Shown here piece after piece: positions 8,805 through 12,823 of a stretch of DNA of 64,000 nt; the first letter of the stretch is position 1, and each line of letters begins with the position of its first letter. A model generated the notes under the pieces. That model did not search any database. It worked only from the letters and a program-made list of their open reading frames with translations, and was not told the origin of the DNA. The stretch is from an uncultured Gemmatimonadales bacterium (GTDB lineage: Bacteria; Gemmatimonadota; Gemmatimonadetes; Longimicrobiales; RSA9). The stretch covers positions 32,001 through 96,000 of the forward strand of contig CAWAMW010000011.1 of NCBI GenBank assembly GCA_963783305.1, in the 5' to 3' direction. The position numbers were made by a program, and so were the translations under genes.

Positions 8805-8808
8805 GAGT

Positions 8809-9000
8809 GCAGGGTTGGCTCGCCTTCGGCTCGCAGTGTGGCGCCCTGCGGGCGCAGTATGGCTCGGCCTCCGGCCTCGCAGTGTGGCGCCCTTTGGGCG
8901 CAGGGTGGCTCGCCTCCGGCTCGCAGTATGGCTCGGCCTTCGGCCTCGCAAGGTGGCTCGCCGCTGGCTCGCAGGGTGGCTCGGCCCTCGGCCTCGCAGG
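8809..9000 (-). repeat. REP-like mini-hairpin array, 8 units of 21-25 bp, reverse orientation
   Basis: Units such as gcagtatggctcggccttcggcctc and gcagtgtggcgccctgcgggc are reverse complements of the units at 1263-1594 and 9083-9375. Confidence 0.92.
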
Positions 9001-9082
9001 AACCGCGTGCGGTGTGCGGGGGAGCCGTTTTGGTCGGTCGTCTGGTAAGCAGGCATTCGCGAGACGCCCCACCGCCTGGCTG

Positions 9083-9375
9083 CTGCGAGCCGCAGGCGAG
9101 CCCCCCTGCGAGCCGCAGGCGAGCCCCCCTGCGAGCGTCAGCGAGCCACGCTGCGAGCGTCAGCGAGCCACACTGCGAGCGCCAGCGAGCCACACTGCGA
9201 GCGCAGCGAGCCATACTGCGCCCGCAGGGCGCCACACTGCGAGGCCGCAGGCCGCGCCACACTGCGAGGCCGCAGGCCGCGCCACACTGCGAGCGCCAGC
9301 GAGCCATACTGCGAGCGCAGCGAGCCACACTGCGAGGCCGCAGGCCGCGCCACACTGCGAGCCGCAGGCGAGCCA
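9083..9375 (+). repeat. REP-like mini-hairpin array, 13 units of 21-25 bp, forward orientation
   Basis: Units CTGCGA-[GC/GCC/GGCC]-GCA/GTCA/GCCA-[complement]-GAGCCACA repeated 13 times. Confidence 0.92.
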
Positions 9376-9399
9376 AGGCCTCCCCCAGGAGGCCGCCTG

Positions 9400-9810
9400 A
9401 TGCGCCAAACTCTCCCGATCACCGCCGAGATCAACGTGACGAGTCTCGTGGACGTCGCGTTCACTCTGCTGGTCATCTTCATCATCACGGCGCCCATCCT
9501 CCAGGGAGGGGTGGAGGTGGAGCTGCCGCGGGCGGACGCGGGGCCCATCACGCAGTCGGAGGGGGTGGTCGTCACGATCGGCGAGGATGGCTCGCTGTAC
9601 CTCGATGACGCTCCCATGGCGTCGCGCGAGGAGTTTCTGCAGTTCTTCCCACGCTACATGGAGGACCACCCGGGCGCGGCGGTGTTCGTTCGGGGCGACC
9701 GGCGGGTGGCGTACGGTGAGGTGATGGAGCTGTTCAGCCTCATGCGCGGGGTCGATGTCGCCGAGGTGAACCTGGTGCTGGAGAACCCGCCGGACCGTGA
9801 GCGTCCATGA
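9400..9810 (+). CDS. tolR: Biopolymer transporter ExbD/TolR (TolR)
   Basis: AEINVTSLVDVAFTLLVIFIITAP and VRGDRRVAYG motifs; AGGAGG RBS. Confidence 0.92.
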   Translation: MRQTLPITAEINVTSLVDVAFTLLVIFIITAPILQGGVEVELPRADAGPITQSEGVVVTIGEDGSLYLDDAPMASREEFLQFFPRYMEDHPGAAVFVRGDRRVAYGEVMELFSLMRGVDVAEVNLVLENPPDRERP

Positions 9811-10511
9811 GGGGGAGGGGGAGGGGACCGGGGACCCGGGCATTCCTGCTGTCGGCGGCCGCGCACGCGGCGCTTCTGGTGCCGCTCGTCCTCTTCGCGC
9901 GCGCGCCGGAGCCCATGGAGTTCGAGACCGTCCGGATCAACCTGGTCTCACCGCCGCCCGCCGCGGTCGCCCAGGCGCAGACGGAGGCCGAGCCCACGCC
10001 CCCGCCCACGCCGGAGCCGGAGCCCGTCCGCGAGGAGCCGGAGCGGGAGGTGAAGCCAAAGGAGGAGCCGCCCAAAGAGCCGCCAAAGCGCGAGAACATC
10101 GAGCGACCGGAGACCGAGAAGCGGCCGGAGACCCCCGCGCAGACGCAGCCCCAGCCCACTCCCACGGAGGAGGCGCCCGAGGCCGCCACCGGCGGGGACG
10201 ACCTGAACATCGCCACCGAGGGGCGCGAGTTTCCGTTTCCGGACTACCTCGCCAACGTCATCATCCAGGTGAAGCGCTACTTCCGCTGGAGCGACGACTC
10301 GCACCCCAAGGGCGTCATCTACTTCGAGATCACCCAGGATGGCGGCGTGCGGAACCTGCGGATGGCCCGGTCTTCGGGGAACATCCGGTTCGACTTCGCC
10401 GTACAGGGAGCCGTGGAGACGGCGGGGAACCGTGGCGCCTTCGGTCCGCTCCCCCAGGGTTACGCCGGCCCGTTCCTTCCGGTGCAGCTCGAGGTCGAGC
10501 CCCCGCGCTGA
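9807..10511 (+). CDS. tolA: TolA/TonB-family energy transducer
   Basis: N-terminal anchor with SxxxH (SAAAH), Pro/Glu-rich linker, C-terminal TonB_C-like domain (SSGNIRFD); lies between tolR and tolB. Confidence 0.8.
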   Translation: MRGRGRGPGTRAFLLSAAAHAALLVPLVLFARAPEPMEFETVRINLVSPPPAAVAQAQTEAEPTPPPTPEPEPVREEPEREVKPKEEPPKEPPKRENIERPETEKRPETPAQTQPQPTPTEEAPEAATGGDDLNIATEGREFPFPDYLANVIIQVKRYFRWSDDSHPKGVIYFEITQDGGVRNLRMARSSGNIRFDFAVQGAVETAGNRGAFGPLPQGYAGPFLPVQLEVEPPR

Positions 10512-10565
10512 GCGGCGGCACGTGTTGACTGGTTCAAGAACCCTGAACGGAAGGCCGGAGTCGGA

Positions 10566-12155
10566 GTGAGAGTCTTAGTCCCTAGCAGGCTGCTGAAGAA
10601 GTGGAGGGAAGGCGGGTCGAGGGTCGATCCCTTCGGGACCCGCTGGCGCGGGGGTCGATCCTCGGGGTCGCTTCGCTTCCCGAGGACCCCGCTGGCGCGG
10701 GGGGTCGATTGCCCGCGCTCCGCGCGAGGCGACCGCGCTGCGCGAGGCGTCGACGGGACGGGGCACGCGCGTGTGCTTTCCCCCAGCGACCGTTCGCTCC
10801 CCGCCCACCGCCCCTTTCAGCGACCTGCTGGCCGTGTCCTGCTGTCGGCCCTGATCCTCGCCCTGGCCGCGGTTTCACCCGTGGCCGCGCAGGAGGACCT
10901 CCCCAAGGGGGTCCAGCTCAAGCTCGTCTACGAGACCCAGTATCGGGATCGGCTGGCCGTCCAGCCGTTCACCGGGCCCGGCGTGGGCTTCGCCGTGGAG
11001 GAGACCCACCGCATGGTCCAGCGGGACCTCGACTACTCCGACCGCTTCGAGATGCAGTTCGACATCCCGCAGGCGATGCGGCAGGGGACCATCGACTACG
11101 GCGCATGGAACTCCCTCGGCGTGGTGTACCTGGTCACCGGGTCCCTGGAGCCCACCCAGGACGGGTTCGGGCTCCGGATCGCTCTGCACGACGTCGTGTA
11201 CGGCTCGGTCAAGGAGATCCGCCAGTTCCAGCTCCCACCCCGCGGCGACCCGGGCTTCCGCATGGCCGTCCACGCCGCGTCCGACGAGGTGGTGCGCTGG
11301 GCCACCGGCGAACGAGGGGCGGCCGCCACGCGCGTCGCCCTCACTCGCCTCCGCTCCGACGGCACCCACGAGCTGCTGCTGGTCGACTCCGATGGCGAGA
11401 ACGTCACCCGCATCCATGAGGGCGAGTCCATCTACTCGCCCACCTGGGGGCCCTCCGGCGACCGCCTCGCCTACGCCGAGACCGACTACGTCGAGAGCGA
11501 CCGCCTCATCGAGCGCGACCTCCGCACCGGCCGCACCCGCATCCTCAGCGAGCGAGGCCTGCCCGCCCAGACACCCGCATACTCGCCCGACGGCGGCCGG
11601 CTCGCCATGGCCCTCTGGATCGACCGCGGCATGGAGATCCACGACTACGATGTGAACCGCAACTGCTGCATGCGCCGACTGACCCGCCGCGCCCGCATCG
11701 ATATGCACCCGTCCTACTCCCCGGACGGCCGACGCATCGTCTTCCAGTCCGATCGCCTCGGCGCCCCCCATATCTTCACCATGCCCGCGGACGGCGGCGA
11801 CGCCGTCCTCATCACCCCCTTCGAGAGCGGCGGACCCGGCTACTTCACATCCCCGGACTGGAGCCCCCGGTCCTCCCAGATCGTCTTCCACGGCCGCTCC
11901 CGCGGTGGCGTGTTCCAGATCATGGTCGCCAACGCCGACCGCCCCGGGGGCGCCGTCCAGCAGATCACCTCCGAAGGCAGGAGCGAGGACCCCAGCTGGG
12001 CACCCGATGGGCGCCACATCGTCTTCAGCGGGGTGCGCGACGATGGCATGGGCTTGTATGTTATCGACTTGATCACGGGCCGGATCCGCCCGCTGGTGAC
12101 CGGAGGACGCTACCGCATGCCCGACTGGTCGCCGGCCCTCGCGGGGGGGCGATGA
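10566..12155 (+). CDS. tolB: Tol-Pal beta-propeller protein TolB, with an in-frame MITE-like insertion in its signal peptide
   Basis: TolB_N (RDLDYSDRF) plus PD40 repeats (PAYSPDG, PSYSPDG, PDWSP, PSWAPDG); GGAG upstream of GTG 10566; true start uncertain. Confidence 0.92.
   Translation: MRVLVPSRLLKKWREGGSRVDPFGTRWRGGRSSGSLRFPRTPLARGVDCPRSARGDRAARGVDGTGHARVLSPSDRSLPAHRPFQRPAGRVLLSALILALAAVSPVAAQEDLPKGVQLKLVYETQYRDRLAVQPFTGPGVGFAVEETHRMVQRDLDYSDRFEMQFDIPQAMRQGTIDYGAWNSLGVVYLVTGSLEPTQDGFGLRIALHDVVYGSVKEIRQFQLPPRGDPGFRMAVHAASDEVVRWATGERGAAATRVALTRLRSDGTHELLLVDSDGENVTRIHEGESIYSPTWGPSGDRLAYAETDYVESDRLIERDLRTGRTRILSERGLPAQTPAYSPDGGRLAMALWIDRGMEIHDYDVNRNCCMRRLTRRARIDMHPSYSPDGRRIVFQSDRLGAPHIFTMPADGGDAVLITPFESGGPGYFTSPDWSPRSSQIVFHGRSRGGVFQIMVANADRPGGAVQQITSEGRSEDPSWAPDGRHIVFSGVRDDGMGLYVIDLITGRIRPLVTGGRYRMPDWSPALAGGR
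10586..10827. mobile_element. MITE-like non-autonomous element, 242 bp, imperfect terminal inverted repeats and 4-bp target duplication
   Basis: Left end CAGGCTGCTGAA, right end TTCAGCGACCTG (10/12 complementary). Flanked by CTAG (10582-85) and CTGG (10828-31). Internal direct repeat gaccc(c)gctggcgcggggg(g)tcgat twice. No transposase. Confidence 0.75.
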
Positions 12156-12214: not shown

Positions 12215-12823
12215 ATGACGCAGCGTTTCATCATCACCGTGGCCCTGGCCGCGTTCGCGCTGGGGGGCACGGCGGCGTGTGGGAAGAAGCCGCCGGAGGG
12301 ACCGACGCCGGAGGAGATGCGGCAGGACAGCATCCGGCAGGCCGAGGCCGCGCGGCAGGACAGCATCCGCGCTGCGGAGCGGGCGCGTCAGGACAGCCTC
12401 GCCGCGGAGCGGGAGCGGGAGGAGGCGATGGCGCGCGAGACGGCATCGGCGCGGGACATTCTCGAGGCGATGATCCATTTCGGGTACGACCAGTCCGGTC
12501 TGACTGGGGAAGCGGAGCAGCAGCTGATGCGGAAGGTGGCGGTGCTGCGAGCGAACCCGGACGTGCAGCTCCGGATCGCGGGTCACGCGGATGAGCGGGG
12601 CTCCATTGAGTACAACCGTGCGCTGGCGCAGCGTCGTGCGGAGGCGGCAAAGGACTACATGACGAACTACGGGATCGCCGCGTCGCGGCTGAATACGGTC
12701 AGCTTCGGCGAGGACCGTCCACTGGTGAACGCGAGCAACGAGCAGGCGTGGGCGGAGAACCGACGCGACGAGTTCTCCATCGTTTCCGGTGGGGATCAGA
12801 TGCGCGTACCGGGCGGCTCATGA
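12215..12823 (+). CDS. pal: Peptidoglycan-associated lipoprotein Pal (OmpA family)
   Basis: Lipobox TAAC, GHADERGSIEYNRALAQRRA, SFGEDRP and AENRR motifs; GGGAG RBS before ATG 12215. Confidence 0.95.
   Translation: MTQRFIITVALAAFALGGTAACGKKPPEGPTPEEMRQDSIRQAEAARQDSIRAAERARQDSLAAEREREEAMARETASARDILEAMIHFGYDQSGLTGEAEQQLMRKVAVLRANPDVQLRIAGHADERGSIEYNRALAQRRAEAAKDYMTNYGIAASRLNTVSFGEDRPLVNASNEQAWAENRRDEFSIVSGGDQMRVPGGS

Follow-up and report, generated by a model that had tools for sequence, protein, structure and literature searches.

How can a gene for a conserved envelope protein carry a piece of mobile DNA within its own reading frame? The question is raised by the tolB gene of the window, by which we mean the whole 64,000-nucleotide stretch analysed here, taken from a contig of an uncultured Gemmatimonadales bacterium (GTDB lineage Longimicrobiales, RSA9). 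A preliminary description had proposed that a 242-bp element with imperfect inverted ends and CTAG and CTGG flanks is inserted exactly in frame inside the TolB signal peptide, where the element and one 4-bp flank (246 nt) add 82 stop-free codons, and all of these features were confirmed in the sequence. The account that we favour, and hold to be rather likely, is that an IS5-type element entered the gene in frame after codon 7, that translation would still begin at the original GTG, and that the resulting 108-residue signal peptide, with its 82 added residues, would be removed on Sec export and leave the mature protein unchanged.

The tolB locus and its empty allele

The gene lies in an operon of the order tolQ-tolR-tolA-tolB-pal-cpoB, assigned from best NCBIfam matches whose scores for TolB, TolQ, TolR, TolA, Pal and CpoB are all under the curated cut-offs; the Pfam TolB_N and PD40 domains of the tolB product score above theirs. 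The stop codon of the tolA-like gene and the tolB start are 54 nt apart, and this gene is the only full-length tolB match in the source genome. The nearest homologues bear names that assign the organism to Gemmatimonadota, Longimicrobiales. Its reading frame is stop-free across the whole element (Table 1), and RNA-level excision, which had been raised as something to look for, has gained no support and is not needed because the frame is open.

Table 1. Features of the tolB locus, in window positions.
Feature	Position	Strand	Basis and remarks
tolA-like gene	9807..10511	+	TIGR02794 match, below cut-off; upstream of tolB
tolB reading frame, 529 aa, GTG start	10566..12155	+	ORF, NCBIfam, Pfam; insert follows codon 7
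CTAG target, left copy of the 4-bp duplication (inferred)	10582..10585	.	spans the Pro6-Ser7 codons; Pro-Ser-Arg are residues 6-8 of the empty allele
242-bp non-autonomous element (MITE), IS5-type ends, modular palindromic interior	10586..10827	+	genome copies, alignment, fold
Left terminal inverted repeat, matching the ends of full-length IS5-family elements at 17/17 nt	10586..10602	+	
In-frame GTG inside the element, codon 70	10773..10775	+	possible alternative start, 39-aa signal peptide; predicted hairpin
Right terminal inverted repeat, family variant, 10/12 complementary to left	10816..10827	+	same variant in the MITE of genome G017
CTGG, right target copy with one transition (inferred)	10828..10831	.	
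Intact h- and c-regions of the signal peptide, residues 91-108	10836..10889	+	hydropathy peak at residue 91; empty-allele alignment
pal	12215..12823	+	NCBIfam best match; downstream, tolB operon

The inverted repeat alone is weak evidence for an element: its 14-nt arms, flank bases included, are 86% complementary, and 26 inverted pairs are reported within the same 701 bp. A chance origin is ruled out by the genomic copies and the match to IS5 ends described below, together with the existence of an empty allele. The closest protein found, P0001 (only residue 1 distinguishes it from P0122), is 447 aa long with MRVFAPSRALLSAVILTLAAVAPAAAQ at its N-terminus and hence shorter than the 529-aa product of the window by exactly 82 residues, the contribution of the element and one flank. 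Its residues 1-7 match those of the present TolB at five of seven positions, an ungapped alignment pairs its residues 8-447 with residues 90-529 at 93% identity, and nothing is inserted between residues 7 and 8; the alignment therefore identifies GTG 10566 as the ancestral start. The comparison of tolB 5' ends that the preliminary description had suggested thus yielded an empty site, seen at the protein level. Among relatives of the genus and family the TolB leaders are too divergent (82% identity at best) for an empty site to be recognised, and inspection by eye of 29 non-self tolB loci revealed no element ends. A metagenome scan for related loci turned up nothing but 6 distant ones (30-45%).

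The Pro-Ser-Arg of the protein points to a CTAG at the empty junction, and the gain of 82 codons would fit a 4-bp CTAG target duplication whose empty site is known as protein only; the same total would result from a 244-bp element that had duplicated TA. The left and right 4-mers are identical in none of the 10 well-ended copies of the family.

Public sequencing runs bear on the integrity of this junction. Run X1, which may be the source sample, supplied a contig that spans the left junction without any difference and reaches 39 letters into the element, and among run contigs at this site, with coverage that excludes 10838-10869, none shows a joint that skips the element. It is extremely unlikely that an assembly error placed a repeat in tolB: the right junction is bridged by none of the public contigs matched and the protein is on record in one assembly length only, but the X1 contig stands against such an error, as do the want of any identical genomic copy (the next best match is 92% over 171 nt) and the fact that excision of exactly the element and one flank restores the length of the relative's protein.

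A 379-nt contig of run X2, which belongs to another study and derives from a relative about 94% identical, matches 10306-10602 with 17 differences, enters the left end of the element for 17 nt and then continues with 82 letters unlike the window, 31 letters being needed for bridging. Other X2 contigs share amino-acid states with P0001, e.g. at 10981 and 11015. The tolB site may thus be polymorphic, or have been hit twice, among close relatives, the X2 contig representing either a variant copy or an independent insertion at the same CTAG.

An IS5-derived element and its modular repeat family

The suggestion that the element is a non-autonomous relative of IS5 has been borne out. The CTAG and the left 17 nt were scanned across species genomes, giving at least 124 loci, the flanks of 80 of which were taken. 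Among the matches listed, both ends were paired by script in 34 rows; 23 of these rows represent 20 distinct elements of 1.2-1.6 kb with a long ORF, and most of the remaining paired rows are elements of 150-370 bp with unrelated interiors. CTAG occurs on the far side in 28 of the 34 rows among the matches listed, a figure biased by a query that fixed the near side and a script that required a similar far flank. Both of the two full-length elements whose ORFs were tested score above the cut-off of NF033581 (IS5 family transposase, transpos_IS5_4). A search of 61 genomes detected related transposases in 7, similar ends being present in Gemmatimonadota relatives, and where the ends are visible the elements of those genomes begin with CAGG and are flanked by YTAR-type 4-mers; in E. 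coli, IS5 is described as duplicating Py-T-A-Pu, most often CTAG (PMC5493358).

The identity of all 17 nt of the left end, the size of the element, its copy number and the existence of matching NF033581-positive insertion sequences support its derivation, as judged from sequence, as a MITE of the IS5 family. The search for a transposase with matching ends succeeded only in part, since it led to IS5-family elements of other bacteria and to none in the source genome, where, at 96% completeness, neither PF05598, PF01609 and PF13751 nor an IS5 transposase query gave a match. Old MITEs often persist where the cognate transposase is absent, and repeats often go unassembled; because such absence is common, we did not treat the missing transposase as excluding a MITE.

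Further copies, whose existence the preliminary description had proposed to check by BLASTN, are abundant. The element as query returned 42 clusters in the source genome; profiles of its ends found 24 left ends, 22 right ends and 17 paired copies at 137-359 bp; and all 17 paired copies as queries defined 57 loci. In alignment, the two ends are common to the copies, as is a repertoire of palindromic modules subject to gain, loss and repetition. Apart from one duplicated region (C2/C3), no two copies are identical. Within the family, the left end is preserved best in the tolB copy (17/17). Interior modules, mostly without ends, match in two of the five genomes of the genus that were searched (G002, G005). 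A search with profile HMMs of the ends across 24 loci from G002, G005, G010, G014 and G017 gave no match at E 0.01, the ends in G017 being visible by pattern.

No transposase is encoded within the 242 bp. The element with its flanks is predicted to form one closed structure in which the two ends pair with each other and which beats 200 of 200 shuffles (z = -3.37); with more flanking sequence the advantage over shuffles disappears (z = -1.08). The Y1 transposase family (PF01797), that of the RAYT enzymes by which REP/BIME repeats spread, has two matches in the source genome, neither directly flanked by a locus of the family (nearest about 3 kb and about 13 kb).

Some further observations concern the wider family. 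In the same-family genome G017, a short element (L189:1504-1698) combines two ends almost identical to those of the tolB element with an unrelated interior and with CTAG and CCTG flanks. Within the window, positions 239-303 (contig positions 32239-32303) form a module of this family that is devoid of ends.

Survival of the reading frame

Whether the kept frame was a matter of chance can be judged from the distribution of the whole family. Against the 3704 genes (86% coding) that a home-made gene caller defined in the source genome, 30 of the 57 loci lie between convergent genes, compared with 491 of 3687 gaps (29 of 56 without the duplicate, p = 7e-12). Enrichment between convergent genes is a REP-like property. 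Many family loci adjoin a TAG stop, and among the 31 of 44 ends kept well enough for scoring, the TAG of the flank is retained at 7 of the 8 whose flank serves as a stop codon and at 3 of the other 23 (p = 0.0003); retention mainly at stops implies that the target was CTAG and that it decays unless selected. Flanks that are not stops have mostly decayed to CTGG, CCAG and similar sequences. In the source genome CTAG is four-fold under-represented (724 sites, 3064 expected), and a third of its occurrences (235) are stops.

Coding targets that could accommodate the element are scarce. At 126 coding CTAG sites the phase is one in which either end of the element reads into TGA within five codons, and the read-through phase found at tolB applies to 25 of 151 coding sites. 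Placed in that phase, the frame is kept in 9 of 20 copy-orientations, or in 5 of 16 once the tolB copy and the duplicate are left aside, from which it follows that about 5% of coding insertions would read through. An open frame as such is unsurprising for this repeat family, given that 8 of the 10 well-ended copies are stop-free in the tolB phase and 5 of the 10 have a frame-keeping length (counting the tolB copy and one duplicate).

As to whether coding insertions keep frame, a point that the preliminary description had raised, tolB is the single convincing coding insertion among 57 loci, and its frame is kept. At seven loci the frame is open and one side shows coding signal; of these, tolB alone combines a start before the element with a gene after it; since the gene caller missed the true tolB start, other N-terminal insertions could be missed as well. 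A second candidate (G000:C16:298966) was rejected: its frame is open and no start codon precedes the element. With only 25 of 151 coding sites readable, the kept frame looks like survival under selection, and the pattern fits a purging of harmful coding insertions with tolB as the sole survivor. The peptide encoded by the insert has no database relative, occurring in none of the 589 other candidates searched (proteins of 290-926 aa).

The course of events may accordingly be pictured, in outline, as follows. The element would have been inserted in trans by an IS5-family transposase that the assembly no longer contains, with duplication of CTAG, of which the right copy would later have become CTGG. 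The site happened to lie in the one codon phase where the element end is stop-free, for a net arithmetic gain of 82 codons; frame-breaking insertions into coding sequence would have been purged, and the tolB copy would have survived in the positively charged, disposable n-region, downstream of which the hydrophobic core and Val-Ala-Ala are predicted still to direct export and cleavage.

The signal peptide, the start codon and competing explanations

The long leader possesses the Sec/SPI hallmarks, namely a positive n-region, a hydrophobic core and small residues at -3 and -1. Its hydropathy reaches 2.94 at residues 91-101 and Val-Ala-Ala precedes Gln109, so that, by the von Heijne rule, cleavage is predicted after Val-Ala-Ala 108. 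The n-region spans 90 residues with a net charge of +15, and the insert contributes no hydrophobic stretch (maximal 11-residue hydropathy 0.08). Tat export was considered and rejected, there being no Arg-Arg pair in the first 115 residues.

That an insertion is tolerated in this envelope gene, as the preliminary description had it, finds indirect support in the mature protein. The 26 differences between mature TolB and the empty allele divide, by reference to 10 outgroups, into 10 derived here, 12 derived in the lineage of the empty allele and 4 that are not assignable, and at the 228 columns invariant in the 10 outgroups each lineage has 3 changes. Judged by these substitutions, mature TolB gives no sign of relaxed selection, of which a very recent insertion would leave none. 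It is very doubtful, in our estimate, that the insertion cripples export or translation and has left this strain with a weak or dying tolB allele: the 90-residue n-region does lie at the far end of the clade range and a strong predicted stem does arise early in the message, but no stop or frameshift interrupts the 529 codons, the conserved columns carry no excess of changes (a comparison of little power if the insertion is very recent), and the remaining operon is intact.

Of the three outcomes that had been envisaged for TolB, namely a signal peptide of about 108 aa, a new start inside the element, or a structured insert that tunes expression, the first is weakly supported by start accessibility and by the N-termini of the clade, the second is less favoured and the third has found no direct support. 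Translation mainly from GTG 10773, whereby the element would donate the start and 20 codons, seems to us rather unlikely. The Shine-Dalgarno energy of the internal GTG is equally good (-7.0 kcal/mol, against -6.1 at GTG 10566), but the codon sits in a predicted hairpin whose opening energy of 16.3 kcal/mol resembles that of random internal GTGs (median 16.8, 10th percentile 11.6, n = 246), in contrast to 10.3 kcal/mol for GTG 10566 and a median of 12.4 for 250 called starts. The module that contains the internal GTG also occurs in intergenic copies and is hence not a local adaptation, and the upstream start and frame have stayed intact although initiation inside the element does not require them.

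Long N-termini are moreover common in the clade. Among the 49 of the 53 closest homologues in which the residues before the first conserved motif could be measured, the median is 54; 14 have at least 70, 6 have at least 90 and 2 reach the 114 seen here. The starts behind these figures are gene-caller choices, and the N-termini may be over-long; 63 more distant homologues have a median of 29 residues, none reaching 70. For G003 and G004, the initiating ATG of the long N-terminus overlaps the tolA stop. Taken together, modelled accessibility and the long N-termini of the clade weakly favour the original GTG over the internal one. Against initiation at the original GTG with a 108-residue leader, it must be said that the strong predicted stem begins 16 nt downstream of the first base of the start codon, where the ribosome would have to open it, and could lower TolB output.

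A different possibility is that the insert has been co-opted, the RNA structure behind the start codon or the Arg-rich n-region tuning the amount of TolB or the timing of its export relative to TolA and Pal. We regard this as quite improbable. The fold that surpasses all 200 shuffles, the best-kept left end and the X2 contig that also appears to enter the element would agree with it, but the fold loses this distinction when more flanking sequence is included, young age explains well-kept ends equally well, and a close relative lives without the element; besides, a scan found 0 promoter- or terminator-like sites, and the only Rfam match scores 17.4 bits against a gathering threshold of 37. As far as sequence can tell, the insert is most likely a neutral passenger in a disposable leader.

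TolB leaders of the clade (P0002-P0053; L003, L006) show unusual length and variability, internal repeats of the Arg-His-Ala-Thr type occur in some of them, and this leader region may collect insertions generally. A more far-reaching proposal, which we offer as an improbable one, would make the n-region of TolB in this clade a safe harbour and recurrent landing site, in which a transposon-built leader of 108 residues is exported by Sec, the same CTAG has been hit more than once, and the folded insert sets the TolB-to-Pal ratio.

Relation to known systems

The principle that these results illustrate is already known, both for in-frame MITE fusions, which a 2024 review calls not unusual (PMC10969869), and for long signal peptides. 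With IS5-derived MITEs the element shares its short length, lack of a transposase, multiple copies, IS5-identical ends, CTAG-type target and closed fold; it differs in that the copies are 137-359 bp mosaics of palindromic modules that also exist without IS5 ends (here, in G002 and in G005), and in that the target duplications have decayed. The likeness to Rickettsia palindromic elements, which had been drawn at the outset, holds loosely for a palindromic repeat read in frame inside a housekeeping protein and fails for frequent coding insertion: the same review describes repeats of about 150 bp of which nearly half are coding with a conserved peptide (PMC10969869), whereas here one locus in 57 is coding, its peptide recurs in none of the other 290-926-aa proteins searched, and the insert occupies a predicted cleaved leader instead of the mature fold.

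Among enterobacterial RU/ERIC fusions, PMC2759123 describes an RU-2 repeat that lies in a predicted signal peptide and supplies residues 1-30 of the putative exported protein YPO1552. There too a MITE-like repeat contributes to an N-terminal signal sequence; the present case differs from what is described there in that the existing signal peptide of a conserved envelope gene has been split and an empty allele is at hand. The extended signal peptides of autotransporters, presented in PMC2805444 as Sec substrates with a conserved extension of about 25 residues before a normal signal peptide, differ from the 82 residues found here, which are strain-level, derived from mobile DNA and free of any hydrophobic stretch. 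A limited literature search found nothing on this repeat family or on such an insertion in tolB.

What the locus adds is a natural pair of filled and empty alleles in close relatives, in which mobile DNA has survived in the part of a conserved envelope gene whose product is predicted to be discarded, together with the description of a modular repeat family with IS5 ends in Gemmatimonadota. If the long start is used, Sec would accept an arbitrary, Arg-rich addition of 82 residues to an n-region. Annotators should also be warned that long TolB N-termini in this Longimicrobiales clade can be real.

Two observations on neighbouring repeats may be recorded. At contig positions 29633-30257 (L207:252-689), a small ORF of the four-helix-bundle family of 23S rRNA intervening sequences (PF05635, above cut-off) sits between two methionine-synthase-like genes, so labelled by reading the sequence, and has interior modules of the repeat family, without IS5 ends, on both sides. 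The repeat load within the tol-pal operon itself is unusual, in that the 595-bp spacer between tolQ and tolR (window 8805-9399) holds two tandem arrays on opposite strands, one (8816-8999) built from a 23-nt unit repeated about 8 times and the other (9083-9375) from a 22-nt unit repeated about 13 times.
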